A model generated the notes under the pieces. That model was not told the DNA's origin, searched no databases, and saw only the letters and a list, made by a program, of their open reading frames with translations. Below, piece by piece: positions 6,751 to 52,489 of a stretch of DNA of 64,000 nucleotides (positions within the stretch are counted from its first letter, which is position 1; the number at the start of each line of letters is the position of its first letter). Source of the DNA: Euglena gracilis (Eukaryota); contig CP154954.1 of NCBI GenBank assembly GCA_039621445.1, positions 12,828,716 to 12,892,715 on the forward strand. Reading direction: 5' to 3'. Position numbers and translations under genes: made by a program.

Positions 6751-6781
<31 letters not shown>

Positions 6782-6789
6782 GATATATA

Positions 6790-6875: not shown

Positions 6876-6882
<7 letters not shown>

Positions 6883-15290: not shown

Positions 15291-15599
15291 GGTAAACAAT
15301 TTTGTACATAGGCCATGTTCGACCCTCCACCTCTGCTTCCGCTATATATTTACACACACAAATCACGTTTGCCCGTTCGCTATTTACGCCATGTCCGCCA
15401 ATTGCAGAATTGGTTGAAACATTTATCCATTTGCCACAAAGACGCCATGTCCGCCTGATTTTGCTTTTACCGTTTACCCGTTTGCTATTTACGCTTTGTC
15501 CACCAAATTTTGTCCACACAGAAGGATGTTGTTATTGGGGAGCAGGGGAGGGGGGAGGGGGGTAGGAGGGAGAGGGGAAGGGGGTGGGGGGAGGGGGGG

Positions 15600-16240: not shown

Positions 16241-16402
16241 ATGTTTCACATCTCTTCTTCTTGTGCCTCGCTGTGCCTGCATTATCCCATTATCCTTGTC
16301 GCATCCCCGGCGAGCAACTGCTGATTCTTGCATTCTGAGTCTACAACACCACAGATTGCATCACGGCACACCACCTGTCCCACTGTCGGCCTGTGCACAA
16401 AA

Positions 16403-25945: not shown

Positions 25946-26908
25946 TGGACCATGACCTGAGCAGGGGGCAGGTCCGTCGGCCTTGCCAGGAGCACGTCAA
26001 CGACGTCATCACCGAGCTGAAGAACAATCTCCCGCAGGAGCTGATGCTCACTGGGTGGCCGGAGAGAGGAGCCCACCCTACCTCCCTGTGTTTTTGTCTG
26101 CTTTCCCGAGGTGATATTTCCACTCACTCCAAATTATATGCAGAACTGATTCGGATTACTTTTATATTTCTTCATTTTCCCCCCTGTTTTTATACACTGC
26201 TTGCGTAAAGGTGGGTGAATGCAAATTTCTCTGTGGCATCCTTTGCACAGCTGCCGGGAAGTGGGTCATACTGAGTGGACAACATCGTTTCCTGGCCGCG
26301 GCAGCCATCGCCGACGCCGCGATCGCCGATGCGCCCCCGGCCTTCACGGAGAGGTTCCAGTGCAAAGTGGTGAAGGAGAACACCCACACAGGAGTGCCAG
26401 CAGCTGCCCGGCAGGCTGCAGGACATGGACGGGAATGTGATGGACATGACGCTGGCACCGCCTGCACTGGCTCCTAAAGGAGGACACCTACAACCGGGAG
26501 GCCGCTGAAGTACATGGGGTGCCCTACAACTCGATGAAGACGGAGCTGTTGAAGACCGTTTACAAGAAGACGGGCTGTTGGGAGACGGTGGATAGCGTCC
26601 TGGTGTGCTTGGTGTTGGCATCATAATACCTGCAGAGGATGAGAAACATGTCTAAATGGACAAAAATAATGTCCATTATGGTAATGCGTTGATAGACAAG
26701 AATATAATTTGAAATGTTTCCCCGCTTCAATTTCATTCTGATGTGGTTGTTTTCATCCTCTCAGGGGACCTGGGTGAAGGCCATGCTCCCGGTGACGGAG
26801 TGGGTGCAGCAGTAGATTCTTTTTAACTGAGAAATGCAAATCCGCTATACAACTTACACTTGATACTTTTTTCTTTTCAAATGTTTGGCATATTTAATTT
26901 GTTTGTTG

Positions 26909-26965
<57 letters not shown>

Positions 26966-27686
26966 TTTTTGCGGACCACTCTGGCTGAACATCTCCGGAT
27001 TCATTCCAGAGGGGACGGAGGCGACCCCGGCATCACCCACGGAGGAGGAGCCCCCACCCAAGCAGGGTGGCCGGGGGGGCAAAGGAGTCCAAATCCAAGG
27101 AGACTAAAGAATCACAGGAAAAGCCCAAGGAGAAAGAGTCCAAAGACAAGCCGCACAAAAAGGTCAAAGACACATTCAAAAAGGGCGCTCGGGGGTCCGC
27201 CTCCTCGCAGCCAGCCCGACACTCCGAGTCGTCCCTGGAGCCGCCAGAGCGTGTGGCGCACAAGGAGTGGTGCAAAAGTTCTTGACAATGTTCATTGAGT
27301 CATTCATATATGCCTTCATCTTTATTCAATAATTATTCATATAATTACTTTTTATTATTGAGGAAATGTGTTTCCGCTTTGTTACCAAATTGCAAATTAC
27401 ACCTATTTTAAAAATGTCTTTCATTCAGGACTGAATGCTGTTTGGACATTTTCCTTGCTTGTTTCCTTTACAGAATGAGGACGACGAAAGGTTTTTCTGC
27501 AAAACTCCGGTTTCAGTCTGATGTTACTCTGTTACCAGCTTGCACCGCCTCTCTGGTGTCGCGGAAGCGGTCCGCCCTGGAGAACATCCAGGAGATGATG
27601 GTTGACGAGGACTGAGTGGCCAAGGCGGCTGCGGTGGCAGCAGGCGGCGGGTGCCGCCGGCGTGGGACAAACGTCATCGCACTGTG
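25946..27686 (+). pseudogene. ParB/Srx-fold gene, 5'-truncated duplicate
   Basis: Exon-like blocks DHDLSRGQVRRPCQEHVNDVITELKNNLP and GKWVILSGQHRFLAAAAIA...ERFQCKVVKENT (SGQHR at 26274-26288), then a K/E-rich exon; frameshifts present. Confidence 0.65.
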
Positions 27687-28874
27687 ACCCCAGAACCCCG
27701 GATCCCAGACACCAGACAACATCACACACGTACCCGCACCCCAAGCACACTCGTGTCGATCGTTTTGTTTCTGTGTCTCTTTGGCATGGCTACGGACATC
27801 GAGGGTGCCTGGGGGGCATGGTCGGATATTCACCTGAGTGCCTAGACAAGAACATAAATAAATACTCTGTTTTTGGGTTCTGCTTTAGGATGCGTAAAGA
27901 CTGACTGTTGAATGTTGTTATGACACAGTTTTACTTCTCTGGGCTGTTTCAAATTTCAGTGATTGTAATGTAATTTCCCATTCAGATGGTCAATGGTTCT
28001 TCTGATGTACACAATTTGTCACTTTTTTCTGGCCAAAAAACATTCTGTTGGGTTGAGGAAACGGAAAACCGCTTCTTTAACTTGTGTTTTTCACAACCAT
28101 TTCCTCGTCACCTCCAAATAACCGTCCACTTCGATCGAGGACAGAGGAGCAGAAGCTCTGTATTGTTCTGTGTTGTATTGCTTTGCATTCCACTTAGACT
28201 GTCTTAAGCCTTGTATGTCAATTATGTCCTTCCGATAATGCATACAATTACTGCTGAATTTGTCTCGTTTCTGTTACTTTTATAACTGTTCAGCATTTCC
28301 TTCTGAATGTAATATTGCTTGGTTGCAGTCGTACATCAATATTCCATTTTACACTATACATTTTCTGATGTTTTTGAAAGTGGTTTTCCGCTTCCTTTTT
28401 GTTTTGCGAAAAATGTATATGTTTTGTCCAGATTACATCAAATATTATTGCTTGTGTTCACTTTCTGTTGCACATCTCCAATTTTTGAAAGCGGAATGCG
28501 ATATTTACCGCTTCCTGTTTTCTTCTATTCTTCTATGTTTTTGCTTCTTTTCTTTTCTTCTATGTTTTTCTGTTTTCCCCTCCTTGCAGGGGCTTTGCAT
28601 TCTTTCCACGCCGATGACAGCAGAAACCAGGTGTGAATCTACAATTTCCTTTTTTTTTTGAATTTTCCCTACCGATTTCGTTCATTTTCATACAATTTGA
28701 AAAAAATGGGTCATTTCGAGTGTATTTTCGACTTTATAGGACTTTGGTACTGCAAGCCAAATATCCACTGAGATTGGACGAAATCGGGACCTCTTAAAGA
28801 AACTTCAAAAACTGTTTTTGGAAGCGGTTTTCCGCATCGTCTGCCGTTTACAGAGCGTCAGAAATTTTGGGCAA
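25946..28874 (+). repeat. Inverted repeat 2, left arm (~2.93 kb)
   Basis: Reverse complement of 31895-34834; near identical apart from small indels, e.g. in (TG)n at 26916-26962. Confidence 0.98.
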
Positions 28875-28889
28875 TTTACGCCGCCTAAG
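28869..28889 (-). mobile_element. Left TIR of the Academ-like element, preserved only at the end of the inverted copy
   Basis: rc = CTTAGGCGGCGTAAATTGCCC, 17/21 identical to the right TIR; followed by TCAAT (rc ATTGA, the TSD core) at 28890-28894. Confidence 0.8.
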
Positions 28890-30880
28890 TCAATACACTG
28901 GCTGAAAAAAAAACCCCAAGCAGATGGCTTTGGGCTTTTTTGTCTCCTTTCGGGTGCAGACCGGTCCCGACCGGCATCTGATTTCTGATTTGGACCCACC
29001 CCCCTGGACCCCCACCCTCCAGGGAGTCCAGCCAGCACTGTTTTTCCAGCTTTAACAACAACAAACCCAACTGTCAAATTTTCATGAATAGAATTTCTGG
29101 AAAAAATACTTGAAGGAAGGAAGATGCATCCAATTTATCCCCAGAGTTCAATTTTAGCCGATTTTGCCAGTTTACCATTTTTGCCACGGTGAGCCATATT
29201 TTCCAACAACTTTCAAATAATTTTGGCAAATTGAAATTGAAAACAAATTTACCCATCCTTCAAAACTTGCTCCATCTGAGCAATCCATCTTGGTGTTCTT
29301 GTGTTCCCACTCTATTACCACTCTATTACCACCAAGAAATGGCTTCAAGCAGCACTGTCTTGAGGGTTTACAAATCACATGCAAATTGTACCATCTCACC
29401 AAGGCTCCAGGCAAAAAAAAGAGATCTGCATCCCAGCCGGGGGAGCAGGTGGTGTCTGTAGAACGGGTGCTGGCTGGACCCTCCACGAAATGGTTCCTTT
29501 TCGGCTTAAGACTACCCCTACTTCAAGCACAAAACAAATGCTTTCTACATGACCCTGAGACAAATTGAGTTTTGTTGGCCACATCTCCTTTTTTTGGGTT
29601 TCTGAATATCAGAATGGAAGAAACCAGAGACCCAAATAGCTGCATTTTTTTTTCCAATCATATTTTTATCTTTGCATCCTCCTCAAAGCATCTTCTTGAC
29701 ACTTGACACATTTTCTGCTTCGCCCTGTGGAGGCTCTTCCTGATCAACAACGCCATTATTTTAACTTCATCGATATTCAGCAACACTTTACTCTGTTTCA
29801 AACACCAGCAGGCTTATTCCCTTCGCAAGATTAAACTTGCAGTGTCAACAAGGAATCAGAGAATGGGGAGGGGGAGAGGGAACAGAGCAGAAAAGCCTCA
29901 CACTCACTAACTACAAATCAGCTGAAAATATTCATATTTGGCGCTGGGGACACTTCCGCAACACGTGCAACACATGTTTCGCGCACCGCATGGTGCCGCA
30001 AATGCACCACGTGTGGCACTCCATGCCACCATGCTGCAGCCACCACAATAGGCCAAAAGAAATGGCTAAAAAACTGTTCAAATTTGAAAAATTGTGAAAT
30101 TGCAAAACAATGACCAAAATAGTGACCAATAGTAGCATCAGAAGTTGTTTAAATGGGAAACAACACCAAAAAAAAAGCAAAAAAACCAAAATTTGGCAAC
30201 AAACAGCCGAAGATGAAAAAGGAGTTTAAAAGCAGCCAAAGGTGGCCAAAATGAGTGATCCTTTCAACACTGTGCAGACGCTGTGACGTGGTGCACGCGG
30301 TGCCACACGAGGTGCGCGTGGTGTGGCAGCGTCCTCCCCCCGCCCTGGTCATAACCCCACCTACGGCGATCGGCCCTGGTTGGCTCCAGTCTGCCCTGGT
30401 CGGGCCGACTAGGCCAATGGTGCCCCCAAACAGCTTCACCTCTACGACGACAACAATTAAACTTCAGGAACAAAATTTCCAGGGGAAAAAAGACATGCAA
30501 CCGAAAAAAAAATGATTGTTGACCTGCATTTATTTCTGCAAATCACTCTCTGGTGGAAGCACTTGACAATGGCGTGCGGCAAACCCATGCAAAAAAAAAA
30601 ACGGTCGCTGAGTCTGCGTACTATTTTGCCATATATTACCAAATTGTGTGCAATCCATGCAACCATAAAAAGCACACCCATCCGTGGAGGTTGCTACCAC
30701 CCCAACCTTCGGCTAAACACGGCAGTCGCCTGCACGCCGCCCGAGCAGCTCTGGAGCCCGTCCACTCAACCCGCGCATCGGCACCGCAAGGCAGCGACAG
30801 AGTGGAGAGCATTTTGTTGAGAGTATGACTAACCTGGGGGCGGATGGAATGTTGCAAATGCTGTTGTAAGCCAGCAACCC
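28890..30880 (-). repeat. Old segmental duplicate X1 (inverted relative to 46150-47985)
   Basis: 29170-29400 vs rc 47440-47690; 29930-30250 vs rc 46825-47160; 30530-30860 vs rc 46170-46520. Confidence 0.88.
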
Positions 30881-31894
30881 AAAAAGCAAAGCTAATGGCA
30901 AAACAACTGAATCAGGGCGATGATAAATGAACCCCCCCGGGGGGGGTCCAGTTAAGAGGCAGGAAAATTTGGGCTGGGCTGGAAAAAAGCTGCTGGCTGA
31001 CGGTCCCAGGCTGGAGCTGAGCCTGGACAACTTTTTCCCGACCCATTTTCGCCGACTTCCGTACATCTAAAAGCCAAAATCTGTTAACGTTTCATTGATG
31101 AGGAGAAGGGGGTCCGGGGCTGGAAAAAGGCTGCAGGGAAAAGGCTGCTGGCTGGCTGGACCCTTCGGGGGGTCAAAATTCAAGACCCTTCGGGGGGTCA
31201 AAAAAGCAACGTCCTGAACTGAATTATAATGAAAAACAACTACAAATGAATTGAAAATTGTCATATTACCAGAAACAGAATTCGAAAAATGAAAAGCCAG
31301 AATACACAAATCAAAAAACTGCTTTTGAAGCAACAACAATGCTCCCCTCAACTCCTCCGCGAGCAGCCCCCCCCCGTCCGAGCTATTTCCACAATGGGAA
31401 GGGAATAGCTCACTGTTATAGCACTTTCATGAAGAAAATCTTAAAACAGTGCTCAAAATTGACCTTTTTTGGAAGGTTTCAAACATCACTTTTTGGCAAA
31501 TGTGCTTGGTATTGACCATTTTTTTTGCGAAAATCCAAAAAAAGTTGCCAAAAATAACACCTTTTTGGGCTTTCCCGCATCGGGGATGGGGAACATCAAC
31601 ACAACAAAGACATTTATTTTTCAAAATTGTTTCTTCAAAAAAAAGCAATCAATAAACACCAAAAATGCCGCAACAAAAGAACACGTGACGCAGATTTGAA
31701 AAATGATATTGTCGGTTTGCCCAATTGCATTCTTATGCAATTACTGCTGATGGAATTGGTCTAAAAAAACGCGTGCCCCCAAAAAAGTCGAAAATATGCA
31801 TTTTTTTAAAAATTATTACGATTTTGGATTCTGCAAAAAAAATGTAAACCATCGCAGTGTAAAAATTTGCACTCCCCCTTGGTGGGGGTTGGGG

Positions 31895-33806
31895 TTGCCC
31901 AAAATTTCTGACGCTCTGTAAACGGCAGACGATGCGGAAAACCGCTTCCAAAAACAGTTTTTGAAGTTTCTTTAAGAGGTCCCGATTTCGTCCAATCTCA
32001 GTGGATATTTGGCTTGCAGTACCAAAGTCCTATAAAGTCGAAAATACACTCGAAATGACCCATTTTTTTCAAATTGTATGAAAATGAACGAAATCGGTAG
32101 GGAAAATTCAAAAAAAAAAGGAAATTGTAGATTCACACCTGGTTTCTGCTGTCATCGGCGTGGAAAGAATGCAAAGCCCCTGCAAGGAGGGGAAAACAGA
32201 AAAACATAGAAGAAAAGAAAAGAAGCAAAAACATAGAAGAATAGAAGAAAACAGGAAGCGGTAAATATCGCATTCCGCTTTCAAAAATTGGAGATGTGCA
32301 ACAGAAAGTGAACACAAGCAATAATATTTGATGTAATCTGGACAAAACATATACATATTTTTCGCAAAACAAAAAGGAAGCGGAAAACCACTTTCAAAAA
32401 CATCAGAAAATGTATAGTGTAAAATGGAATATTGATGTACGACTGCAACCAAGCAATATTACATTCAGAAGGAAATGCTGAACAGTTATAAAAGTAACAG
32501 AAACGAGACAAATTCAGCAGTAATTGTATGCATTATCGGAAGGACATAATTGACATACAAGGCTTAAGACAGTCTAAGTGGAATGCAAAGCAATACAACA
32601 CAGAACAATACAGAGCTTCTGCTCCTCTGTCCTCGATCGAAGTGGACGGTTATTTGGAGGTGACGAGGAAATGGTTGTGAAAAACACAAGTTAAAGAAGC
32701 GGTTTTCCGTTTCCTCAACCCAACAGAATGTTTTTTGGCCAGAAAAAAGTGACAAATTGTGTACATCAGAAGAACCATTGACCATCTGAATGGGAAATTA
32801 CATTACAATCACTGAAATTTGAAACAGCCCAGAGAAGTAAAACTGTGTCATAACAACATTCAACAGTCAGTCTTTACGCATCCTAAAGCAGAACCCAAAA
32901 ACAGAGTATTTATTTATGTTCTTGTCTAGGCACTCAGGTGAATATCCGACCATGCCCCCCAGGCACCCTCGATGTCCGTAGCCATGCCAAAGAGACACAG
33001 AAACAAAACGATCGACACGAGTGTGCTTGGGGGTGCGGGTACGTGTGTGATGTTGTCTGGTGTCTGGGATCCGGGGTTCTGGGGTCACAGTGCGATGACG
33101 TTTGTCCCACGCCGGCGGCACCCGCCGCCTGCTGCCACCGCAGCCGCCTTGGCCACTCAGTCCTCGTCAACCATCATCTCCTGGATGTTCTCCAGGGCGG
33201 ACCGCTTCCGCGACACCAGAGAGGCGGTGCAAGCTGGTAACAGAGTAACATCAGACTGAAACCGGAGTTTTGCAGAAAAACCTTTCGTCGTCCTCATTCT
33301 GTAAAGGAAACAAGCAAGGAAAATGTCCAAACAGCATTCAGTCCTGAATGAAAGACATTTTTAAAATAGGTGTAATTTGCAATTTGGTAACAAAGCGGAA
33401 ACACATTTCCTCAATAATAAAAAGTAATTATATGAATAATTATTGAATAAAGATGAAGGCATATATGAATGACTCAATGAACATTGTCAAGAACTTTTGC
33501 ACCACTCCTTGTGCGCCACACGCTCTGGCGGCTCCAGGGACGACTCGGAGTGTCGGGCTGGCTGCGAGGAGGCGGACCCCCGAGCGCCCTTTTTGAATGT
33601 GTCTTTGACCTTTTTGTGCGGCTTGTCTTTGGACTCTTTCTCCTTGGGCTTTTCCTGTGATTCTTTAGTCTCCTTGGATTTGGACTCCTTTGCCCCCCCG
33701 GCCACCCTGCTTGGGTGGGGGCTCCTCCTCCGTGGGTGATGCCGGGGTCGCCTCCGTCCCCTCTGGAATGAATCCGGAGATGTTCAGCCAGAGTGGTCCG
33801 CAAAAA

Positions 33807-33869
<63 letters not shown>

Positions 33870-34834
33870 CAACAAACAAATTAAATATGCCAAACATTTG
33901 AAAAGAAAAAAGTATCAAGTGTAAGTTGTATAGCGGATTTGCATTTCTCAGTTAAAAAGAATCTACTGCTGCACCCACTCCGTCACCGGGAGCATGGCCT
34001 TCACCCAGGTCCCCTGAGAGGATGAAAACAACCACATCAGAATGAAATTGAAGCGGGGAAACATTTCAAATTATATTCTTGTCTATCAACGCATTACCAT
34101 AATGGACATTATTTTTGTCCATTTAGACATGTTTCTCATCCTCTGCAGGTATTATGATGCCAACACCAAGCACACCAGGACGCTATCCACCGTCTCCCAA
34201 CAGCCCGTCTTCTTGTAAACGGTCTTCAACAGCTCCGTCTTCATCGAGTTGTAGGGCACCCCATGTACTTCTCAGCGGCCTCCCGGTTGTAGGTGTCCTC
34301 CTTTAGGAGCCAGTGCAGGCGGTGCCAGCGTCATGTCCATCACATTCCCGTCCATGTCCTGCAGCCTGCCGGGCAGCTGCTGGCACTCCTGTGTGGGTGT
34401 TCTCCTTCACCACTTTGCACTGGAACCTCTCCGTGAAGGCCGGGGGCGCATCGGCGATCGCGGCGTCGGCGATGGCTGCCGCGGCCAGGAAACGATGTTG
34501 TCCACTCAGTATGACCCACTTCCCGGCAGCTGTGCAAAGGATGCCACAGAGAAATTTGCATTCACCCACCTTTACGCAAGCAGTGTATAAAAACAGGGGG
34601 GAAAATGAAGAAATATAAAAGTAATCCGAATCAGTTCTGCATATAATTTGGAGTGAGTGGAAATATCACCTCGGGAAAGCAGACAAAAACACAGGGAGGT
34701 AGGGTGGGCTCCTCTCTCCGGCCACCCAGTGAGCATCAGCTCCTGCGGGAGATTGTTCTTCAGCTCGGTGATGACGTCGTTGACGTGCTCCTGGCAAGGC
34801 CGACGGACCTGCCCCCTGCTCAGGTCATGGTCCA
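31895..34834 (-). repeat. Inverted repeat 2, right arm
   Basis: Reverse complement of 25946-28874. Confidence 0.98.
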
Positions 34835-35150
34835 CAACCAGCTGCCCGGCTGCAGGGTTACGTCAGTTCTTTCTGGATGAAAATATCCATTTTCCAAGTT
34901 GATGAAGCGTGCTTCCGTTTCGTTTTGAATCACAAATTATTTTTTTGCCTTGCATCGCAACAATAACTGAAACTTAAAGTTGACAACCATGACAATTCAA
35001 TTGAGCTTCGCATTTCTTTTGTTCAGCAGAAGTGCAGCAACCAATGTAATTTTGTTCCCTCTGCAGCCACATCTTCTCGTCCTCCAGCAGCTTCGGAACT
35101 GACTGTCCCTAGACGTCTCCCTTTGACAACTTCATTGGAGGAATGCGTAT
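33086..35150 (-). pseudogene. Multi-exon ParB/Sulfiredoxin-fold domain protein (frameshifted)
   Basis: Exons: VPKLLEDEKMWLQREQNYI (~35040-35110); QLVVDHDLSRGQVRRPCQEHVNDVITELKNNLPQELMLT (~34725-34870); GKWVILSGQHRFLAAAAIADAAIADAPPAFTERFQCKVVKENT (~34395-34530); RLHWLLKEDTY...KTELLKTVYKKTG; K/E-rich tail. Motif order matches the ParB N-terminal domain (Q-x-R, helix, GxxRxxA, closing beta strand). Confidence 0.65.
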
Positions 35151-35619
35151 TTGTCTGCGGGGACAAACAGAGGACAAATATGGACAAATATGGATATAAT
35201 CAACCAATCTCTATGAAATCAAGCTGAAATGAACATAATTTTTTCATTTATTTCGAAAAGGTGTTCTAAAATGCAGCCACGTAGCTTTTCCCCCCCACAT
35301 TTCCAGAGTTGTTTTCACACACACCCTACTTTTAAGTCATTTCCGAAACGCAGCCAAATAGCCTTTTTCCCCTACATTTCCAGTGTTGTTTTCACACACA
35401 CCCTATTTTTAAGTCATTTCCCGTACCAAACAGCACCGTCAGTAAAAAAAAAGAGGAATTTTTCTCACCGTGTTTCCTGCCAAGACTCAGTAGGTTCTTT
35501 TCGGCCTCTGCATTGGGTAGAAGTACGTCATCGTGTGAACCCAGCTTGACCCAAAAGTTGTAGCACGACAGACCACCTCCAAAAGTCACTGCACCAAGAT
35601 GCCAGTGACACACCACTGC

Positions 35620-38060
35620 TACTCTCCGGGTGGACCGTACAGGGACTCCGGCGGCTCGTATATGCTGCTACCCTCCTCCATCTCCCCCAGTGAGGCTAAA
35701 GACTCTGCCACCTCTCCAGCGTCGTTGTCACCGAAGTGGTTCTCCGCTTCCTACATGTCATGCAAGATATTTCCGCTTCATCAGTGGAGGCAGTGGTGGA
35801 ATTTCTCCTGCTTCAGCCGTGCTTCTTCTGTGTGCCAAGAAGGTGGAGATGGCCTCTTGTCTTTCCTGCAGAAATTCACACAACCAACGTTGTTCTTGAG
35901 CCACTCCTCCACGTCCGATGCGAGGCACTGCCCTCGGATGAGGGTCTGCAAAGAATGCCGCAGGACAGGCAGCAGCTGCTCAGTGGTCATACGTGTTGGA
36001 AGAGGTTCGGGTGCCATCCAGGTGGAGAAGTTCTCTGGGTCCAGCAGCCACTGCACGGTGGTGCTGTCCCTCTTTGGAAATGGACGTTCTCCGGGGCTTC
36101 CAACCAAGCCACGCACACGACGTGCCATCTCCTGTACCAACTGCCGCCAAAGGCTACCATGGCTGTGATGAGCCTCTCCGGAGGGGGCACCAAGGTTCAG
36201 GAACAGCTGTAGCGTAACGTCGAAGCTGGTCACGCGCGGGTTCCGCTGGCAGAGGACAGCCTCGACAGCATGACCTCGCAGCCGGGCAGCCGAGCAGCCG
36301 TCACATCCAGTCTTGCCAGACCAGCAGGGCGAGGGAGATGGTCCGCCGGTATTCCGAGGGCGGCCTTCCGGGAGTCATCAGTCGTTCCAGGTGCATCAGC
36401 AGCAGGAGGCATTTCTGCAGCACCAGACGAGTGGTGGTGCCCTTCACCTCGTCCTCCGGTCTCCCCCTCCAGGTACACTGTCGCACCTCGTGGCCCAGGT
36501 GCAGCAACGCTGGAGAACACCAGGATATTCCACAGCCTCTGCAACAGCTGGTACGGATGCAACCGGAGCATCTCCTGTTGTACAGCTCGCGTAGTCCCTG
36601 AGATTGTCAAGTCCGTCATTTGTGTAGTCAATTGTCAACTGAATTGCAGAAAATTTGTTATTCACATTCACAATTCACCGCCTAACAATCAAAGCAAGCG
36701 GAAGTCCACTTCACTGCGATTTTGTGCCACTCAGATCGGGGCATGACACACTCGCAAGACAACAGAAGGCTGGCAAACAGCTTCTCCATGTACAGCACTT
36801 TCTAATGGCTCCGCAGACTGCACGTCAGGTGGTGATCACCGGGGGACACTTCCAGGTGGGCCAGGACCGGGAAGAACGCCCGGTACACGATGGCCACCAT
36901 GTGCTTGTACGCGTGCCAGATACCGCACAGCAGGCCAGATAGCGGGACATGTAGTACCGTGATGCCGATGCGGAGTACAGCAGCTGCAGGCACTGGTTGT
37001 GGATGTTCTCATCCACCACGGAGTCTGGCGCCGAGTCAGGTGCTGCAGGGATTTGGCCGTCTGCAGCACAAGCAGGAGGTCCAGGTTGGCTGACACCACC
37101 TGCTCGGTCAGTGACAGTGGACGCCACTGTCACCGACATGCAGGGACCGCATGTCGGTCCGCCGACATCCAGCGGCACCCTGATCGTCTTCTCCGTCAGC
37201 TGCATCCATCGGATTCGACCCACGGCCTGGTGCAGCAGCGGCAACGCAGTACAGCAGGAGGAGGCCACAACTTCCAGGTTGCCGGTGAGCTCGCTCAGTT
37301 CTGGATGTCCTGGAGACACCGGGAAGCTCACGGAACGTGTCCTCATTCCCTGGCACAGCAACACGTTCTCCAGCTGCGGAAATCATCCCCAGTGAGTAGT
37401 ACATGTGTTACCTGCCAGGCAATCATTTAGCACCTCAGACCCAAAGATTACCATCAAATTATCATTTGTCGGCAATCCGCTTCATACTGCCAAATAGCAA
37501 AAATAAATCTTGTTTCTGTATTGCTAAACGTGATATGAAACTCATTTAAATATGGTGATTGTTCATACCCAACCTGTGATTGTATAAAGTACCCTGCACT
37601 GATCCGAAAGCCGTGAGGTTCTGGCTCAGGTTCGGCATCGTTGGGCCTGTTCCCCACCAGCAGCCAGCAGAAGTTGTCCAGCCAGAGGATGATTTGGTGG
37701 TTCCACAGGGAGGATGTTCCGCACATCCGCCGCTGCCCGGGCTGCCACCGGCTCCTCCGTGCGACCCACAATACCGGTGTGTCGCAGTGTTCCCTGCGTT
37801 CCTCTCGGAAGCAGCTGCAGCGTCCGCATGCTGGGAGTGTTCTGCGTCATCGTACTGGGGTCCGCGAAGGGCTGCGCCTGGCGATGCAACGTACACCACA
37901 CAGTGTACGTCCCAGTGGCCAACCACCGAGGATGGCGAGACACGACCGCAGGAAGACCTCCCGCACCGCGTCCACTGTGTGAACGCCGTGCATGGTGTGA
38001 ACGCCGATTCAGCACCATGCAGCACAGTGCCACTATGGCTTGGGCCCCTGCCCCTGTGTC
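35620..38060 (-). pseudogene. Academ/DUF6589-like DDE transposase, intron-containing and frameshifted
   Basis: Stitched across frames in order: IILWLDNF (~37670), IRVPLDV (~37170), VSANLDLLLVLQ, VVDENIHNQCLQLLYS (~37010), LCGIWHAYKHMVAIVYRAFFP (~36915), EYRRTISLALLVWQDW (~36330), GCEVMLSRL (~36275), acidic tail. This fits a D...D...GxxH...Y...E pattern. Further 5' exons may extend to ~39025. Confidence 0.6.
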
Positions 38061-40510
38061 ACGTCATGAAACAGGTCCCATCCGGAACCTGGCTGACCAC
38101 AATGTAAATAAGCTCGAAGGTCCCGAATGTTCAGGACCAGTTCCACGGACAAAAAAGTGAACACATTATGGCCAAGGAAGAGGATCACCGCTTCCTTATT
38201 GTAATTTGCAAACCTGGAACTCTAGAGACATAAAAAAAAGTTTATCTGTTTATGTATGAAGCAGTTTTACGCTTCATTTGAATGCTACTGGTGGTTTTTT
38301 AGGTGCTGTTTGGCAAGTGTACCTTGATTTCAGAAACAACAGGTGCAACATGGCATTGGTTTTTTTAATTGGCTCATCCGGAGCACGATGCAAGGTAAAA
38401 TCCTTCCCAAAACACAAGTACCCGGGAATTTACCATGAATTGGTGTGGATGGTGGAACAGCCGCCGAAACGTTCAGTAAAAATCTTTGCGAGACAGAAGC
38501 GTAGGGTTGGTTTCGGTAATTTTTGTTTGTTTTTTTTCTGCAAGCGGAAAAACGCTTCCCTGAAACTCGCATTTCGAAGTAATACGCGTATTTTGTATTT
38601 TGTTCCAACCGCGCGTGGTCGCTGTCGTTACTCCAACCTGCATGACCGCCTGCGTGACCACAGTCACCACCTCCCCTGCGGCTGCTGACGTGATCACTGT
38701 TACTACCTGTATCTTGATCTCAGTGTATACGTGCTGTGCCAACTTCCCTGTGATGAGTGACAGGGACACCAGGAAAACTGCTTTTGGTATATACTGGTGC
38801 TGTAAAAAATGCGCACAAGCCGTCTTGATGATCCCGACTGCCTGCGTGATCACAGTCATTACCCTCATATACGGCTTCATATCGAAGCGGATTCCCACTG
38901 CCTGTGAAAGCAAAAAGTAGACCCGCATTGGTGTGGCACAGCAGACATTGTGTGGAAGGGGTGGGCAGTCCCCGCCGCACAGGGTCCGTGCCCACAGCCA
39001 GTCCGGTCCGCTGAGGCCATGCCTGTAAACTGAATGTGTGTTGTTTGGGCAGTTTAGTATTTTGTGGTCACAGCGCTTGGTATGAACAATCAAAATCGCG
39101 TTTCAAGTTGTAGGTGAATCAGTTTTCCGCTTCATTTTTTCGATTTATAAAACAAATGTACAGGTAAAAATAAAGTGATGGTAAAAGCTCCTCGAAGTTC
39201 ACGGTTGCGGAGGATTTCTCATGGACTCGATGAATTCTGTATGGAATGCTTAGAAACATACACAATTTGCTGTGGACTGATTTCGCTTGTGGCCCACCGC
39301 GCGTATTTACTCAACTATGCACCTGGAGAAGAACAATGTGACCATGATGTTTTGACAGTGCTTGATACTGGTAAACAATTGTGTACTTTGTGAGTAACAT
39401 TTCAATATAATTGTTCGCCAGTTACAGAGGAAGCGGAAAAACACCTCTTGTTCAGTTTACTGCTGTGTTTTGTGTTGATCCGGAAAGGGGTTGGATTGAA
39501 ATGTTGTTAACCGTTCAACGATTGATTGAAACAGAAAGTGCACTCAGCATTCTTCAGCACGTATTGTAGTTTGTGAATCCAGAACAACGGGGAGCCTGGA
39601 CTGTACGCCTGCCCGGTCCAGCGAAAGCCGTAACCGAACCCCTGGCGACCATGCACCGTTCAGGGGTATGGGGAAGTGAAATGGACCCGGTCCAGCCTGT
39701 CCCCTTTTTTGTTTGCAATTCAGCGTCATTTGGCACCACATTTGTGTTTCTTACTGTTTCATTACGCAGAAAACCGCTTCCTCAGCCGTATATGACCTAT
39801 TTTTCATCGACCTACGAATGTGTCTCGCACACCAATCAACCGCTAAACTGCTGAGTGCACCGTCAACCCCGAAGGTGAGTGACCGGTGCATTTCAGGTAC
39901 AAGATGATTTTGTCTACGGTAGTGCAAGGCGGGGAGCCACGGGGCTGCCGGGTGCCTGCTTCCGCCGCATGCGGCTCTGGCAGCCAACAGGTATACCCGA
40001 CACCGACGGTGGCCAACGTCGGTGTCAGCGAGAGTTAATGACAAAGGATGAACGTGGTCTCTCCTCTTTTTCAATTTGCAATGATGTGTTTCTCTTAATG
40101 TTGGTGCTGTTCTGTTTTCAGCAATATCATGTGTTGCAGTATCCGTGAAGCGGTATTCCGCTTCGTTGCTTCGTTGTGGTTTATGCTTTATTTTGCCATT
40201 ATATTTTTTGGTAAGTAGTGTACATAGCAAAACTAGTTAAAGCCACTTAGTACCTATCTATCTGTTTCTAAGGTGTTTATTGGGGATGTTTGTATGCTTA
40301 CAGACATATTTGCTACTATCTTTTAGTGTTACGTATTTCTTTCTGATTTTACATTAAAATATATTTTAAAATTCATTGAAGCGTTTTTCCGCTTCATCGA
40401 CTCCATCGTCGTATACGTGTAAAAACTTTCTTCGTCCAGTGCAATTTAAAAAATTTGACCGTTTTTGAGAACAATTTTACCGGTTTCTGGAATGCAGTCA
40501 AAATTTTCAT

Positions 40511-40531
40511 GGGCAATTTACACCGCTTCAA
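40511..40531 (+). mobile_element. Right TIR of the Academ-like element
   Basis: GGGCAATTTACACCGCTTCAA followed by ATTGA (40532-40536); contains a CCGCTTC half-site. Confidence 0.8.
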
Positions 40532-41616
40532 ATTGAGGTGAAAACCCCAAAAACAACCATTTTTGGCCATTTTGGACCCTTTTCATCAATTTTTTTTCAC
40601 GTTACAGGCCGGTTTTCATTGGCCTGCTGAGGTTTTATTGCCACTCACCCCCCTGGGGGGCGTCCACTATCCGACTGGCAGGTGTTTGCTGGAAAAACAG
40701 TTCTCCCAAGGGGGTAGGGGTCCACCTTAAGAAATTCCGGGCGTAGATTTACGACGCGGCTGAATTAATCAAAAAAGTCATTAAATTGAATTATCGAACA
40801 TTCAAAATATTGTGTGCCTAAAAAAGTAGAGAGCATGGCGCATTCTCATTCTCTGACAAATTCCCAGAGCTCTGATGGCCAAAAAATGAACGAGAATGTC
40901 ACAAGCATCATTGTGTGGTTTTGAAGCATGATTGTTTTGTGTTGGCACACCCTGCTTAATTATTTGCTGGCTGGATTCAGAATGAACAATGGAACTATCA
41001 GGAGCCATGTAAGGGACCACATGCACAGTAGTCTAGGGCTGCTGAAGCTCTTGCAATCCCATCACCGCCAGTTGGCCGTCCAAGTCGGCAGAACTTTTGC
41101 AGAAAGTTGGTGCGGTGTATTTAGGTGCATTTAATGACATTTGAACTCCAAGCTTCCAAGCCAAAACACCCTTGTTGGGTTTTATACCAATTTTATAAAT
41201 ATTTCATAATTATCATATTCCCGGGCTCTGGGTTTCTAGATTCTAGGTCCAATCCATCTGAAATCCAATTTTCCCCTGTTTTCTTTTTATCTTTTATGCC
41301 AAACAGGGCTCCTGGTTTCAAAGTGCCAAGCTGTTTTGGTTGACCCAGTGCGATTGAACCCAATGTGTGTGATTGAGCATGCAACTTTTTAATACACCAC
41401 CGTTGTGTGACGAAAAAAATTGCCTTCCCCCCTTTTTTGGTGGTTCTAGTAACGCGTCTCGGTCTTGGTTTCTTTCTGTATTTTTTTTTGTAGAATTTCG
41501 CCAGGCAAAAAATTCATTACAGCAAAGTGCGAAACGTTCGATGAGTCATCCCCACTTTATTGTTCCGAAAAAGCAAGGGCTCTTCAAGTGTGCGTGTGTA
41601 TGTGAGTATGAGTGTG

Positions 41617-41649
<33 letters not shown>

Positions 41650-43085
41650 TTATGGTGTATGTACAAGCATAAATAGTTTGGGCGTCCAAAGTCGGGGGAC
41701 AGAGAGCGCATCATTTGGGAGGTTCATTATTTGATCAGAAAAAATCATATTGAAAATAATGATATCCGCACTTTTTGATATTCATTTCATTTTTTTCGAT
41801 ATTTCCCATATTTGTTGGTCCAGTATATTTTTCCAAAATATGTTTGTTCTTTTATGTGTCTTTTTTTTGAAGAAGAAGATTGATGTTTCCCCCTGGCCAG
41901 GGTCCATTATTTGCGGATATTTGGAAGGGGCGTGCATGGTGGTGATGAATGGTGAAGTTCAAAATTATTATTATGTGGCAGGGTGAAGTTTGTGCCCCCC
42001 AAGGTGGTCTCAGGTATACAGAAGGATAGTGTTACGGTTGCAATTTTCCGGTCTAAGATTTCTTTGTATATTTCTGGACAGCAGTATTTTATGAAAGCTG
42101 TGTATGAATTGCACAGAATGTTTATTCTCGAAAGGGGCAGGGGATTGGTTAGGAACAGGTTTAGGGTTCCCCCCCGTTGGCGTTCTTCCCTCGTAGATTT
42201 GCTCGATGTCAGACTGGTTGAGTTCTTGCCAACAGTGTCGGGACAATCAGAATTCATAACAGTAATGGCAATTGTCTTGTGTCAGAAGCAGGCGGCTATT
42301 CCAGACATTGGGAGCAGAATGACCCTGGATTTGCCTTGCACACCCCACTCCCTCCAGCCCAACCAGCTCGGACAGCAGTGTTGGGACCTCCGGTCCCTTC
42401 GGCTGGAGCCCTCCGCTCACCCTGGCGGTGACCGTGCCACCCATGCCTCCACGGTGGTCGTGCCGCTCCATCGATTGCCACCGAATCCGCCTTATCATGA
42501 AAACCACACAACTGCAAATACTGGAATTGTTGAAGAAAATGAAGGGATCCTTAATTTGAGAAACAGAAAGGAGATGGAAAATTACTGGTTTTATCTTACG
42601 CTTCCGGGAGCATACTGTAATGTGCAGTGTGCAGAGGTATTATATTAAAATTTTTATAATAAAATTTTCATATCAATTAATTATTTACAATATTGTTTGT
42701 GATAGCATATACCAATCGTTGGAGGAGCGAATTTGTCAGGCAAGGACCGTTTTCAGTAAAGGTCAAGGTAAACCTTGCCTTCTTTGCTTGCGCACTGATA
42801 AGTTTTTTCCAGCTTTTTTTGAATATTTTTTCAGGCTCTCAATCATGTCTCAGGCTTTTTTACGACAGTGCAATTGTGTGTGCCAAACAAATGTTATTGC
42901 CGAATTGTATGCCACGCCACAGATAGCCCCCCCCCCTTCTGGAGAAGCCCCCCCATTTCACAGCAGAACCCTCTGACGAGGGCTGCCCCACTGAATTACA
43001 AAAAAAACCAGGTTTGTTTCTGCAGCAATGATGTCCTGAATTGTACAGTGTCACCTGGGAATCTATCCCCCCCCTCTATATCTCT
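40532..43085 (+). repeat. Old segmental duplicate Y1 (direct paralog of 47981-49910)
   Basis: 40560-40700 vs 48030-48185; 41000-41090 vs 48520-48616; 42350-42530 vs 49080-49260; 42830-43065 vs 49680-49910. Confidence 0.9.
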
Positions 43086-43239
43086 CTCTGTGTGTGTGCC
43101 TGCGCGCATCAATATTTCTTTCTTTTGTTGGAATTTCCAAAGTTATCTTTAGGCAGCCCTGAATTAAAGATGTTATTTCTTTGCTGCCCCGAAACGCCTT
43201 TTCGATCTCTTTGTGTCACGTTGCTCAATTTCTTTTCAT

Positions 43240-43500: not shown

Positions 43501-45023
43501 CTGTGACGGAGGGTGAGAGGCAGGCAGGAAGGGAAAGGAAATTCAATCTTCTGTTCCCTTGGGAAGAGGTGCTTGTCGGGCCAGCCACCGGCCCAGGGGC
43601 GTTGGGCTCCACCGCCACCTTCTTCTTCCTCTTCTTCTCCGCCTCCAATTCCTCCCCTTCCGCCTCTTGGGGGATTTGGGTTGGAGCGGGTTGCAAGGAG
43701 ATGCAGCTGCCACAGCTGCTCCAAGTAGTGGCTGCGGAACGGGACATGGGGTCCACCAGGGGCAGCACCGCCACCACCACCCGTTCAGGTGCTCCGGTAA
43801 CTCTGCCCGTAGTAGTCGAACCGCAAGACAGCGGGGTTCCCGGCCAGGTCGCGACATAGCTGGGCCTGCCGCTCCAGGGCCAGCCGGGAACGGTAGGCAG
43901 CAGAGTGCAGCAGGGGTGACGGGTGGCCCACACCCGGGTCGCATTCCGCCGCTCCCCGGACAGCGACCACCTTCTGGCCGAACTGACCCGCCGCCCCCGC
44001 CGACATCACATGGAGATGCTGTGGGATGCCTGGGCGTCGCTCCAGGCCCATCACCAGCACGCCTGCCCCCGTTACCGCTCGTCGCCTACAAGGACGTGCT
44101 GCTGCCCACCACCGGTGCCCTGGGCCGCTTCCTCCGCCCCACCAGCTTGTAGAGGGGGTGGGACGGGTCCACCGTGGCCATGACAAAGTCCGCGCACGTG
44201 GCGACGAATGTGTCCCGCAGCAGCCATTCGATGGTCTTGCCGGCGGTGGTGCAGAATTGTCTGACAGGGGGGTAAGCGTGTCGGGGACGGTGGAGGGTCT
44301 GCGGTTGGTGGGGTATGGAGTTGTGGTGGGTGTAGGGACCTCTGATTGCCGGGATCCGCCGACACAACAGCCGGTCAAAACCACACAGCCGAAGGGAGGG
44401 TCCCCACACGTTAAAAGATATTGAGAGATCAAAGGATGAATGTGCAGGTGCATTCATTCATCATTCATGTTGATACCATTATTAGCAGGAATGTGAATTT
44501 GCGCATTCTTTTCAGTAACAGTGAATGCACACCTGCACATTGTGCAGTGAAGAATGGGATGGTTACATTTGCAGATTATATCCATTTCAGGTGTGGCCAG
44601 ATGGTTGGAGTCTGTGAACGCGTTTGTCAGCTGTAAAATTGTTTTGATATTCACTTTCAAACCATCAACAACGGCATCGGGGGATAACATCAGATCCTGT
44701 GTTTATCAACAGTGCTCAGGTATTGTGTGCCGTACAATTTGAAACCCATATGGTTGGAAGAAACCTTGTGCAGCCAACCCCAGATAGGTGTATCTCACCC
44801 ACTCCCAGATTATTGTGGATTCCCCCTCGAAAACATTTGGAAAAATTTTTAGCTGTGGTCTTTGGCCAGGCTGGACTGACCTCATAGGAGGGGAGCCCAT
44901 GGTGAGGGAAAAGCATTCAGGATGCAGCAGCCTCGTAATCACGTGAAACTCTCCGTTCTGACACCCGCTCACTCAACGCAAGCAAGGGCTTGAACTGCGT
45001 TAAACCTTGGGGGTAGCAACAAC

Positions 45024-45226
45024 CAAGCACCTATAGTACAAATGGCCGAAAATGGCCGAAAATGGCCGAAAATGGCCGAAAATGGCCGAAAATGAATTTT
45101 TGGGCTCTATAGGTAGGTGGGGGTCCCGAAAATGGCCGAAAATGGCCGAAAATGGCCGAAAATGGCTGAAAATGGCCGAAAATGGCCGAAAATGACAAAA
45201 ATCGGGGGGTCAACTATAGGTGCTTG
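45024..45226. mobile_element. hAT-like MITE with (AAATGGCCGA)n subterminal arrays
   Basis: Perfect 14-bp TIR CAAGCACCTATAGT; perfect 8-bp TSD GCAACAAC at 45016-45023 and 45227-45234. Confidence 0.9.
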
Positions 45227-46149: not shown

Positions 46150-49100
46150 ATTTCGTCTCAAACTTGCACGGCATTTGCAACGTTCCATCCGCCCCCTTCC
46201 CCATTTTTGCCCAGGCAAGCCTTGCTCCCAACAAAATGCTCTCCTCCTCTCTGTCGCTGCCCTGCGGTGCCAATGTGCGGGTTGAGTGGACGGGCTCCAG
46301 AGCGGCTCGGACGGCGTGCAGGCGATTACCGTGCTTTTCCGAAGGCAGGGGTGGTATTAACCTTCCCTGGATGGGTATGCTTTTTATGGTTGCATTGGAT
46401 TGCATACAATTTGTAAATATAGGACAAAATAGTAAGCAGTGTCGTCGACCATGTTTTTGTATGGATCTGCTGCACAGCATCGTGAATTGCTTCCACCAGA
46501 GAGTGATTTGCAGAAACAAATTCAGATGCTCCGGCCAACAATCAGCAATTTTTTTTTCATTTCTCGTCTTTTTTCCCCCTGGAAATTTCATTCCTGAAGT
46601 TTGGGGGTTGTGGTCGTTGGGTTTTAGAGGCACCGTTGTTGCTATTTGGAGGTACCGTTGGCCGAGTCGGCCCTCCCGGGGCCAACCAGGGCCGATTTTG
46701 CCGATACCCGTAGGGCTGGTGGGGATGCTGCCACACCACGCCCACCTCGTGCGGCACCGCATGCTCCGCATGGCGCACCGTGTGCACCGTGTGGGCTCAT
46801 TTCCAACATTCCTCGAATTTATATTACATTTTGGCCACCTTTGGCCGCTTTTAACGTTTTTGTTTGTTTAATCTTCGGCTATTTGTTGCCAGTTTTTGGC
46901 TTTTTGCCTTATTTGGTGTCGTTTCCCATTTGAAGCATTCTTGATGTCATTGTCGGTCATTTCATGGCCACTGTTTTGCAATTTTAACAGTATTTCGATT
47001 TTGAACCTTTTTTAGCCATTTTTTTGCCTAATGCAGTGGTTGCAGATATGGTGGCACAGAGTGCCGCACGTGGTGCACTTGCGGCACCATGAGGTGCACG
47101 TGGTGCCACAAAATATGTGATGCACGTGTTGCGGAAGGGTCCCCAGTGCCAAATATGAATTTTGTTGGCTGATTTATGGGGAGTGAGTGTGAAGATTTTA
47201 TCCCCTCTTCCTTTGTTCCCTACGCTTTTGGTGCAAACAGTCTCCCTCTCCTCATTCTTTGATTTCTGTCTTGTTTGTACTGCAAGTGAATTTTGTGAAG
47301 GGAATGAGCGACAGCTGCGGTTCGAAACATAATTAAGTATTATTGAGGGGTCCAGCCAGCACCCTTTTTACAACCAGCACCTGCACCCCCGAATGGGCTG
47401 CAAAGCGTCCCTTTTGTCTGGAGGTTTGGTTGTTCCTTGATTGAGATGGTACATTTTGCATGTGATTTGTAAACCATCAAGACAGTGACGGTTGAAAACA
47501 TCTTTTGGTGGTGATAAAGTGTTAATAGAGTGGGAACACAAGAACACCATCTGGAATGGCATGTGATTGCTCAGATGAAGGATGGCTCCCAAAACGGTTA
47601 AATTGGTTTCAATTTCAAACAGCCAAAATTACTGGAAAGTTGCTGGAAAAAATGGCTCACCCTGGCAAAATGGCAAAATGACAAAATGGGGAGGCTAAAA
47701 CTGGACCACGGGGGATAAATTGGCTATTCGAGGGAAGAAGACAATGTAGCTTCGTAATTGAATGAAATGTGTCTTCCTTCCTTCAAATCTTTTTTTCCAG
47801 AAATTCTCTGCATTAAAGTACTGCAGTTGGCTTTGCCGTTATAGAAGCTGGGAAAAAGTGCTGGCTGGACCCCCCCCCCTAGAGGGGTCCTATTCAGCTG
47901 CTGAGCTGGACCCGGCTGGCACCCGAAAGCTGGCAAAAAGGACCAAATCTACCTGTCTTGGATTTTTTCCCAGCCAACTTATTGAGGTGGAAACCTAAAA
48001 AACGACCAACAATGGATTTTGGCCATTTTTGGCCATTTTGGACCTCTGTTAATCAATTTTTTTTTCGGTTCAGGCCGGTTTCACTGCCCTGTGAAGATTT
48101 CATTGACACTCACCCTCACCACTCCCACTTACTCTTAGGGGGGAGCGTCGGCCATTCGAATGGCAGGTGTTCGCTGGAAAAAATGGTGCTGGTTCAAACC
48201 CCCGGCAGGGGTGGAGGCAGGGGGGGGGTCCCTGGAATGGGTTGGAATGGGGGCACAGGTTTATGATGTGGCTGAAGACATCACAAAGTCAAGTAATTGA
48301 ATTCATCGGATATTCAAAATATTGTGTGACAAAAAGAGTAAAAAGCATGGCACATTATTATTATGTGACAAAAAATCCCAGCCCTGGCGACGTAAAATGT
48401 ATGACATTGTCACAAGTATCATTGTGTGGTTTTGAATCATAATTATTTTGTATTGGCACACCTCCTGAATGTCCGGCCAATTACGTGACGGCTGGCAAAT
48501 TCGGAATGAACCATGGAGCTGTTAAGAGCCGTGTAAGGGACCATATTTGCACAGTGGCCTGGGGCTGCTGAAGCTCTTGCAATCCCATCACCGCCAGTTG
48601 GCCATCCAAGTCGGCATGTCCCGCTGCAAGGTTCTCCTGTAATGTAAAAGAGTGGTTATGAGTTTTTTTCTCGTTGTGTGTGTGTGTGTGTGCGTGTGCT
48701 TGAGTGCGTGTGTCTGTTTATAAGCGTAAATAATTTGTGCAGCCAAAGTCGGGGGACAGGGCGCTGTAAGTTGGGTAAGCTGTAGTTTTCTGCGTGTAAT
48801 TTTAGACAGCAACATTTTATGTAAGCTATGTATGAATTGCACCGAATGTTTATTACCACATTGGTACCACATTGGGCAGATAATTGGATAGGTTCCGATT
48901 TAGGGTTCCCCCATTGGCATTATTCCTTCCTAAATTCGCTAGATCTGAGATTGGGTGATTCTTGCCAACAATATCAGAACAATAAGAATTCAGAACAATA
49001 ATAAAAATTGGTGTGTGTGTATGTCAAAAGCAGGTTGATTTTCCAGTATGACCCTGTCCTTGCCTTGAGCATCCCACCCCCTCCAGCCCAACCAGCTCGG

Positions 49101-49909
49101 ACAGCAGTGTTGGGACCCACGGTCCATTCGGCAGGAGCCCTCCACTCACCCCAGCGGTGGCCGCACCACACATGCCTCCACGGTGGTCGTGTGGCTCTAT
49201 TGATTGCCACCTATTTCGCCTTATCTTGAAAACCACACAACTGCCAATACTGGAATTCTTGTCCAGCTGAAGAGTGAAGAGCTGGAGGGATTCTGAATTT
49301 GAGAAATAGAAAGGCAATGTAAAAATAACCGGTTTTCTCCTGTGCTTGCGAGAGTAAACCGTAAAGTGCTTGTTTTTAGAGGATTTGAATGATTTTTTTT
49401 CTCATCAGGTAATACGTGTGGCATAACAATTGGTTATTTACAACATTGCTTGTGGCCGTATATACAAATCGTTTGAAAAGTGAAAATGCCAGAAAAGGAA
49501 CGTTTTCAGTAAAGGGAAGCCTTGACAAGGCTGGTAATTGATCTTGCATTTGGGGGGGGGGGTTGCGATATTTTGCGAGACATTGCACGGCCTTGCAATA
49601 TTGGCGATATTTTCAATTGTCTTCTTTTCTTGCATACTGTCATGTTTGTTTTTTCATCCAAATTTATTTTTTGAATATTTTTTTCAGGCTCTCAATCAGG
49701 TGTTAGGCTTTGTCACGACGGTGCAATTGTGTGTGCCAAACAGATGCGATTGCCGAACTGTATGACACGCCACAGATAGCCCCGCTTCTAGAGGAGCCTC
49801 CCCATTTCACAGCAAAACCCTCCGACGAGGGCTGCCCCACTGAATCACAAGACAACCAGGTACGCTTCTGTGACAATCATGTCCCAAATCGTACAGTGTC
49901 CCCTGGGAA

Positions 49910-49910
<1 letters not shown>
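46150..49910 (+). repeat. Old segmental duplicate X2+Y2, uninterrupted (contains the empty insertion site)
   Basis: Left part matches rc 28890-30880 and right part matches 40532-43085; they join at a single ATTGA (47981-47985). Confidence 0.88.
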
Positions 49911-49971
<61 letters not shown>

Positions 49972-50937: not shown

Positions 50938-50963
<26 letters not shown>

Positions 50964-50968
<5 letters not shown>

Positions 50969-52481: not shown

Positions 52482-52489
52482 TCCTTGCA

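Follow-up and report, generated by a model that had tools for sequence, protein, structure and literature searches.

ParB-like accessory genes of eukaryotic DNA transposons have been described in algae in two works of 2025. In red-algal Plavaka elements, according to the available part of the preprint, the PAG3 protein combines a ParB-like part with a putative 2-oxoglutarate (2OG) oxygenase, and arrays of tandem inverted repeats lie beside its gene; PAG3 also occurs with Zisupton, Mutator and Fanzor-encoding elements, and its ParB assignment is itself weak by HHpred, with an E of 0.29 (bioRxiv 10.1101/2025.02.11.637652). The Sola1-1_Ec32 element of Ectocarpus encodes a ParB-like protein with a DNA methyltransferase, and similar proteins are said, in the accessible portion of the article, to occur in green and red algae (PMC12477816). 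The ParB-like protein is proposed to bind its own transposon in the available parts of both works (bioRxiv 10.1101/2025.02.11.637652; PMC12477816). Here, a transposon of about 8.6 kb is analyzed, which is contained within a stretch of 64,000 nucleotides of Euglena gracilis DNA (contig CP154954.1); the whole stretch is hereafter called the window, and positions are counted from its first nucleotide. A preliminary description, made from the sequence alone, had proposed for 31895-40531 a possibly undescribed transposon lineage, in which a ParB-like protein would load on element-internal palindromes. Because the algal works, in the parts available, describe ParB-like accessory genes in eukaryotic DNA transposons, the central idea of that description is already in print, for Plavaka and Sola1.

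The locus is interpreted, with moderate probability, as a single old and now dead insertion of a high-copy eukaryotic cut-and-paste transposon, encoding a DDE transposase and possibly a ParB/Srx-type accessory protein, the palindromes being most likely binding sites of an element-encoded protein. Like the Plavaka elements with PAG3, as far as these are described in the available text, it would be a DDE transposon with an accessory protein of weak ParB-type N-terminal similarity and with internal inverted-repeat arrays. PAG3, however, is fused to the oxygenase and accompanied by PAG1 and PAG2, and its repeats are in tandem beside the gene, whereas in the Euglena element no enzyme domain was detected, the palindromes are dispersed up to the tips of the terminal inverted repeats (TIRs), and no Plavaka/KDZ Pfam match was obtained. 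With Sola1-1_Ec32 it would share a ParB-like accessory protein, proposed in that case, in the accessible portion of the source, to bind and modify its own element; Sola1-1_Ec32 is 21.5 kb long, with the gene on the opposite strand and a protein of 1104 amino acids including the methyltransferase (PMC12477816), whereas the Euglena element measures 8.6 kb, has co-oriented genes and would encode a short protein without methyltransferase. Fusion of a ParB-like domain to an enzyme that modifies DNA or chromatin, as in the algal elements, is not found here. The differences lie in a distinct, unclassified transposase family, in the lack of a detected fused enzyme domain, and in palindromes that are scattered along the full element and extend to the tips of its TIRs.

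The palindrome is 18 nt long and reads GAAGCGG-N4-CCGCTTC (7+4+7). Searching the window with GAAGCGGAAAACCGCTTC, by allowing up to 3 mismatches, returned 16 matches against 0.06 expected, all located within the element or within a duplicated arm of it: the span 31931-40395 contains 13 rows, corresponding to 12 sites, and the duplicated arm contains the other 3, at 28058-28838. The about 15 element-specific palindromes of the preliminary description are thereby borne out. Sites were also scored as two 7-nt halves separated by a 4-nt spacer, with no more than 3 mismatches out of 14. By this procedure 16 sites were found in 31895-40531, as compared to 1 in the 49,414 bases outside 25946-40531, while 200 shuffles gave a mean of 0.275 and a maximum of 4. 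An extra site at 32255 has a 13-nt spacer, for a total of 16-17 palindromes, dispersed within the element rather than arranged in tandem. Conservation among sites is confined to the 18-nt core, the flanks being unrelated, and the two orientations are equally represented (8 and 8). Spacing ranges between 81 and 384 bp in both subterminal regions, and between 829 and 1482 bp in the coding part, where three out of four sites lie within AT-rich, stop-filled intervals; the highest density is reached in the 0.8 kb next to the left end and in the 2.4 kb next to the right end. In both TIRs, the 7-8 bases at the outer tip are similar to a palindrome half-site. At 28836, in the duplicated arm's mirror image of the first site, public contigs read T, which restores a perfect CCGCTTC half-site: this base is found in 32 contigs of run X1 and 29 of run X10 (all the depth there), and in 33 contigs of run X18 (278.9 of a depth of 284). 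Since the contigs carry the restoring base, at least this site is conserved in the family. The exact palindrome was also met once in each of 5 viral contigs; this was judged to be due to chance, without a computed expectation.

The borders were located by self-comparison of the window, through a repeat unit (U, 46168-49938) which is a diverged paralogue of the DNA surrounding the element. The reverse complement of 29022-30864 resembles the left half of U (46168-47874), and 40557-43091 resembles 48023-49938, at 70-84% identity. Homologies of the left and of the right flank stop at one shared point, the heptamer TATTGAG at 47980-47986, and because they converge there, imperfect TIRs of about 30 bp and a target-site duplication of about 7 bp can be defined; given the decay, 5-8 bp are possible. 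On the minus strand beside the duplicated arm, the order is U-left, TATTGAC, TTAGGCGGCGTAAATTGCCCAAAATTTCTGAC; at the right end it is GTCAAAATTTTCATGGGCAATTTACACCGCTTCA, AATTGAG, U-right. Each target-site copy differs from the heptamer of the empty site by a single mismatch. TIRs, target-site duplication and multiple copies, the three marks of a cut-and-paste transposon, are all found.

The element had been described as about 8.65 kb long and delimited by TIRs and target duplication. Its right end at 40531 stands, within about 1 bp; its left border at 31895 does not, being the exact inner edge of an inverted repeat with arms of 2.94 kb. This repeat (25946-28874 versus 34834-31895) shows 99.63% identity over 2,940 columns, with no substitution between its arms; all differences are short indels, four in number, which affect a GA dinucleotide, a TG microsatellite, a C run and an AT step. 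The true left terminus is at about 28888 and survives, together with its target copy, only beside the duplicated arm (28875-28895), where homology to U begins directly outside the complete left TIR. After insertion, the left 2.9 kb and the left flank would have been duplicated in inverted orientation, or misassembled so, with 31895 as a false left border. Near-perfect inverted duplications can thus mimic element ends in this window, and the misread border is a caution in this respect. Either a real duplication or a misassembly may be involved; public contigs are too short to confirm or refute the junctions 25945/25946 and 31894/31895. One contig in each of two runs was aligned up to 28886, about 2 bp from the terminus proposed here, and resumed at 32249, beside a palindrome; these contigs may derive from another genomic copy, which is nested or rearranged.

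Table 1. Features of the element and of its surroundings. Positions refer to the window; a dot indicates that no strand is assigned.
Feature	Positions	Strand	Details
Complete left TIR	28856..28888	-	starts TTAGGCGGCGTAAATTGCCC on the minus strand; can be aligned to the right end after reverse complementation (TGAAGCGGTGTAAATTGCCC...)
Left target-site copy	28889..28895	-	reads TATTGAC in minus-strand orientation
Truncated left TIR of the long copy	31895..31915	+	outermost ~13 bp gone; 31895 is the edge of the inverted duplication
Left subterminal palindromes	31931..32713	.	31931, 32255 (13-nt spacer), 32377, 32696
Second co-oriented pseudogene (putative ParB/Srx-like)	33157..35140	-	exon 2, 34716-34862; exon 3, ~34160-34530, with SGQHRFLAA
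Internal palindromes	34050..36712	.	putative AT-rich introns contain 34050, 34904 and 36695; 35733 lies in the 3' tail of the transposase gene, which is poorly conserved
Transposase pseudogene	35631..38200	-	tblastn with P0009, P0013, P0017; LWLDN, RVPLD, VDENIH, GIWHAYKH recognisable
Right subterminal palindromes	38177..40395	.	38177, 38258, 38541, 38884, 39116, 39430, 39763, 40147 (perfect), 40378
Right TIR	40497..40530	+	outermost bases CCGCTTCA are a palindrome half-site
Right target-site copy	40531..40537	+	AATTGAG
Inverted duplicate of element 31895-34834	25946..28874	-	extends from the left end into exon 2 of the second gene
Spacer between the 2.94-kb arms	28896..31894	.	29022-30864 corresponds, in reverse complement, to the left half of U and represents the original left flank; 30785-31618 is another high-copy repeat
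Paralogous empty site	47980..47986	+	TATTGAG within repeat unit U, 46168-49938

Both genes of the element lie on the minus strand, and their GC-rich coding pieces are split by AT-rich, stop-filled intervals. The first, the transposase gene, contains at least 5 frame changes, several in-frame stops and AT-rich putative introns, and a conserved FVEES stretch is apparently deleted from this copy. Frame changes and in-frame stops confirm the two co-oriented broken genes of the preliminary description; both are pseudogenes, and the copy is dead, as had been proposed. A phmmer search with the longest (C-terminal) open reading frame (ORF) returned 21 relatives, three of them of 671-770 amino acids, and by a further search 60 transposase relatives were collected, none with a Pfam domain or a name. 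No relative was found in the viral contigs. When 36 aligned full-length relatives were compared with the Pfam transposase families, including DUF6589, THAP, hAT-dimerisation, P-element and Plavaka/KDZ, no match was obtained; neither structure matching nor Pfam on these relatives identified a DNA-binding domain in the N-terminus.

The fold of the transposase was analyzed on the AlphaFold model of a relative (P0009), which is 31-56% identical to the pseudogene over the tblastn pieces. The model has a predicted local distance difference test (pLDDT) value of 82.2 and a predicted template modelling (pTM) score of 0.74, and shows a long helical insertion, which interrupts a core of strands and helices. 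Foldseek ranks Hermes (probability 0.99, E 2e-3) and the P element highest. By using VIA-align, the P element reached a Z of 10.0 (293 residues), followed by Hermes (8.6), Tn5 (8.1) and ISCth4 (7.4), over residues 137-557, with retroviral integrases, RAG1 and Transib below them. Because the P element and Hermes are matched in VIA-align and Foldseek agrees, the proposed assignment of the first gene to DDE/RNase H transposases is, at the level of the predicted structure, well supported. Among the 36 sequences, the invariant or nearly invariant columns are D164 (LWLDN), D259 (RVPLD), D309 (LLVDENIH), W344-H345-K348, E387 and E516/E517/E520. D164 and D309 are nearly invariant; the invariant E387 and the nearly invariant E516/E517/E520 are candidates for the third catalytic residue. 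The model places a strand at 159-171, D309 just past the strand 306-308, and a helix at 517-532. The acidic columns would accordingly supply the catalytic triad, in an assignment inferred from conservation and model. The gene product would be a transposase with the DDE/RNase H fold, belonging to a large family which lacks a Pfam model and is present on many metagenome contigs, with P element and Hermes as the nearest solved folds.

The copy number of the element was approached through three DNA runs which stem from separate studies and carry the locus nearly unchanged; one run bears the label of another organism. A 12.5-kb stretch is covered by 6171, 3449 and 3293 contigs in the three runs, mostly below 95% identity. 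In run X1 the summed contig depth, which is not to be read as a copy number, amounts to 46,404 in bin 36623-37039 (transposase core) and to 16,767 in bin 34121-34537 (exon 3 of the second gene), and at 35097 a set of 19 contigs makes up 39,544 of a depth of 39,845; for exact single contigs the depth is about 80-130. Exons of both genes exceed these single contigs by two orders of magnitude, which suggests that both genes are high-copy, and since this holds over its exons, the second gene appears to be high-copy in its own right. Distant clusters of the transposase family include 65 and 45 near-identical members on megabase-scale contigs. The highest summed depths of run X1 were found in bins 39542-39958 (67,640) and 30785-31201 (34,979); these GC-rich stretches seem to be separate, very high-copy repeats, one in the right non-coding part of the element and the other in the spacer. 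Rfam and tRNA scans of the window gave no match, including in these two bins. RNA depth, as evaluated on about 5% of one run, is 0-0.74 per strand per bin over both genes, too little to call the family silent. In the same sample, reads reach about 6-10x per strand at the element flanks, in 30368-31201 and 40793-41200, where loose read ends suggest spliced or polyadenylated transcripts.

The second gene lies between the TIRs, about 0.5 kb downstream of the transposase gene and on the same strand. Its exons 2 and 3 encode ...VVDHDLSRGQVRRP...LMLTGWPE and GKWVILSGQHRFLAA..., and its tail is rich in K, E and S. A GxxRxxA motif is defining for ParB proteins. A motif of this type, SGQHRFLAA (GQHRFLA), is found both in the window and in P0004, which is encoded on a metagenome contig and is an intact relative of exon 3, with 69% identity. 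Out of the 30 nearest clusters in ESM Atlas, 7 carry a Pfam label and 23 are unlabelled; the label is ParB_N in two representative rows, on 15-19% of the members. Of the ParB/Srx-fold gene that had been proposed, the motif is thus present, while the fold was confirmed by no hidden Markov model (HMM), profile or fold test. On the motif and on this weak lead from a language model, a ParB/Srx-type protein is given slightly better than an even chance, and the product may be a DNA-binding protein of this type.

Several results weigh against the ParB assignment and, with it, against the interpretation of the whole locus. Pfam, NCBIfam, PADLOC and PHROGs gave no relevant match, with half-domains, namely exon peptides or P0004, as queries; phmmer against PDB sequences returned only ERO1, at an E of 0.66; and the AlphaFold model of P0004, i.e. 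of exon 3 alone, was unusable (pLDDT 40.1). Against an HMM derived from 106 bacterial ParB domains, the joined exons 2 and 3 reached 2.3 bits, below 17 decoys, and hhalign put the GxxR motif on the GERR of ParB in the correct register, but with a probability of 2% and a P of 0.025. Only the canonical-ParB profile was compared with the joined exons, the other tests being made on single exons. Full-length relatives of the protein were not found, since word-index searches gave P0004 and then none. No relative was present in prokaryote genomes, P0004 had no tblastn match in phages, and ESM Atlas returned no usable match to exon 2. A search for PF02195 in phage P1, made in order to gather ParB sequences, gave no match and no loci. 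Linkage of the two genes was seen in none of 7 metagenome loci with distant transposase relatives, all of 4 kb or less and with a single ORF; no ParB-like piece and no palindrome was found in these loci, which are too short and too distant to bear on linkage. The transposase, in turn, has no superfamily placement.

The second gene may instead have a fold other than ParB/Srx and be an accessory or captured gene with a coincidental GxxRxxA; this is held to be somewhat short of an even chance. HMM, profile and fold tests, all negative or unusable, and the failure of the exon 2 search agree with it, while the exact fit of the motif, the pattern of the preceding exon, which is that expected upstream in the consensus, and the ParB_N label of the annotated ESM Atlas neighbours speak for ParB; moreover, the tests were limited to single exons or to a canonical-ParB profile, and the published PAG3 call, in the available part of the preprint, is similarly weak. 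It is far less probable that a host gene, or a fragment of one, has come to lie inside this copy only, without being a component of the family. Such an origin would agree with the lack of demonstrated linkage in other copies, i.e. in the 7 short metagenome loci, but is at variance with the position of the gene between the TIRs, co-oriented with the transposase gene and 0.5 kb downstream of it, and with the high summed depth of its exons (16,767, for instance, versus about 100 for single contigs).

The palindromes, dense in the subterminal regions, sparse inside and with a half-site at the TIR tips, are most likely sites for an element-encoded dimeric protein, which would mark the element and help to unite its ends, or shield it; this protein may be the accessory one or the transposase. 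Subterminal repeats of many transposons are bound by the transposase itself, which also counts against assigning the sites to the accessory protein. Binding by the transposase through an N-terminal helical domain, as for Ac/Ds, En/Spm and P, with the second gene playing another role or none, is possible and rather doubtful. It would account for the half-site at the outermost bases of both TIRs, where the transposase must act, and for the density of sites toward both ends, and would sit well with the unconfirmed ParB fold; yet symmetric 7+4+7 palindromes suit a symmetric dimer, sites as deep as 34050, 34904, 35733 and 36695 are unusual for a transposase, and the transposase N-terminus yielded no DNA-binding domain. 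That the palindromes act as RNA or single-stranded DNA hairpins, such as terminators, sources of small RNAs or processing signals, and not as protein sites, is improbable: a stem of 7 bp closed by a 4-nt A/T loop is able to fold, and three internal sites fall in putative introns, but the sites are found in either orientation (8 and 8) and also in subterminal DNA that is not transcribed, the half-site at the TIR tip cannot form a hairpin, and no Rfam family matched. A more specific form of the preferred interpretation is considered unlikely, though less so than hairpins: a stand-alone ParB-type clamp would load at the element-wide palindromes and at the TIR-tip half-sites, and pair the ends or coat the element against silencing, as a ParB-parS module serving a DDE transposon of an uncatalogued superfamily, without any fused modifying enzyme.

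Other known systems resemble the element in part. P element and hAT transposases (Hermes) are the best structural matches of the model, in which the RNase H core is likewise predicted to be split by a large helical insertion, and the target duplication of about 7 bp is within the range of P and hAT elements. Identity to the matched structures is, however, only 8-11%, and no THAP, hAT-dimerisation or P-element Pfam domain is found in the 36 relatives. The C/DxxH signature, as given in the available part of its source (PMC9587614), was not evident by eye in the transposase family. Bacterial ParB-parS systems share the GxxRxxA-type motif and the multiple short palindromic sites, but no ParA gene is present in the element, and the canonical ParB profile misses the product of the second gene. 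No methyltransferase, 2OG oxygenase or other enzyme domain was detected by Pfam in the 10 minus-strand ORFs of at least 49 amino acids scanned in 32867-35199.

Some Academ lineages carry a second protein, and their target duplication is 3-4 bp. The Euglena element is likewise a eukaryotic DDE transposon whose transposase has no Pfam match, but its duplication is of about 7 bp, and no XPG or helicase gene is found within it. None of the 36 transposase relatives matched DUF6589, and the comparison with Academ made in the preliminary description is left without support. The Academ superfamily stems from Repbase Reports 2010, as cited in the accessible parts of PMC4455052 and PMC5751038; according to the latter, by 2017 no Pfam similarity existed for Academ, Kolobok, Sola, Novosib, Zator and Dada. 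A literature search combining Academ, XPG and transposase found nothing, and one for Academ, transposon and ParB gave only bacterial ParB work among the matches listed.

Self-comparison of the window revealed further repeats. A larger inverted repeat (8686-16383 versus 25940-18247) has arms of 7.7 kb with 99.66% identity, which differ mostly in G-runs and low-complexity stretches, and a spacer of 1,863 bp; its right arm stops 5 bp before the left arm of the inverted duplication of the element. Two giant palindromes side by side point either to fold-back artefacts of the assembly or to a recent, complex rearrangement. Within the 7.7-kb arms, 9/18-bp tandem repeat arrays lie at 15545-16240 and 18387-19083. 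A diverged direct segmental duplication connects 254-7954 to 55314-62973, about 55 kb apart, at about 70-94% identity in pieces. A 77-bp tandem duplication (35264-35417, 86% identity) falls in the short interval between the two genes of the element. A direct repeat at 50954-51590 and 51849-52484 (98.9% identity, offset 894-895 bp) lies in a region of 61-68% GC, which holds an open frame of 638 amino acids without Pfam domain, and the 10-bp tandem repeat AAATGGCCGA forms two blocks in 45020-45215.

The transposase family is of interest by itself, being large, devoid of a Pfam model and endowed with a confidently predicted P/hAT-like fold. Should the accessory protein prove to be ParB-like and to bind the palindromes, the element would be a compact transposon with its own site-specific DNA-binding system. 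With 8.6 kb, two genes and one motif, it is far simpler than the giant algal elements for which the idea was put forward, and the idea would be easier to test on it.

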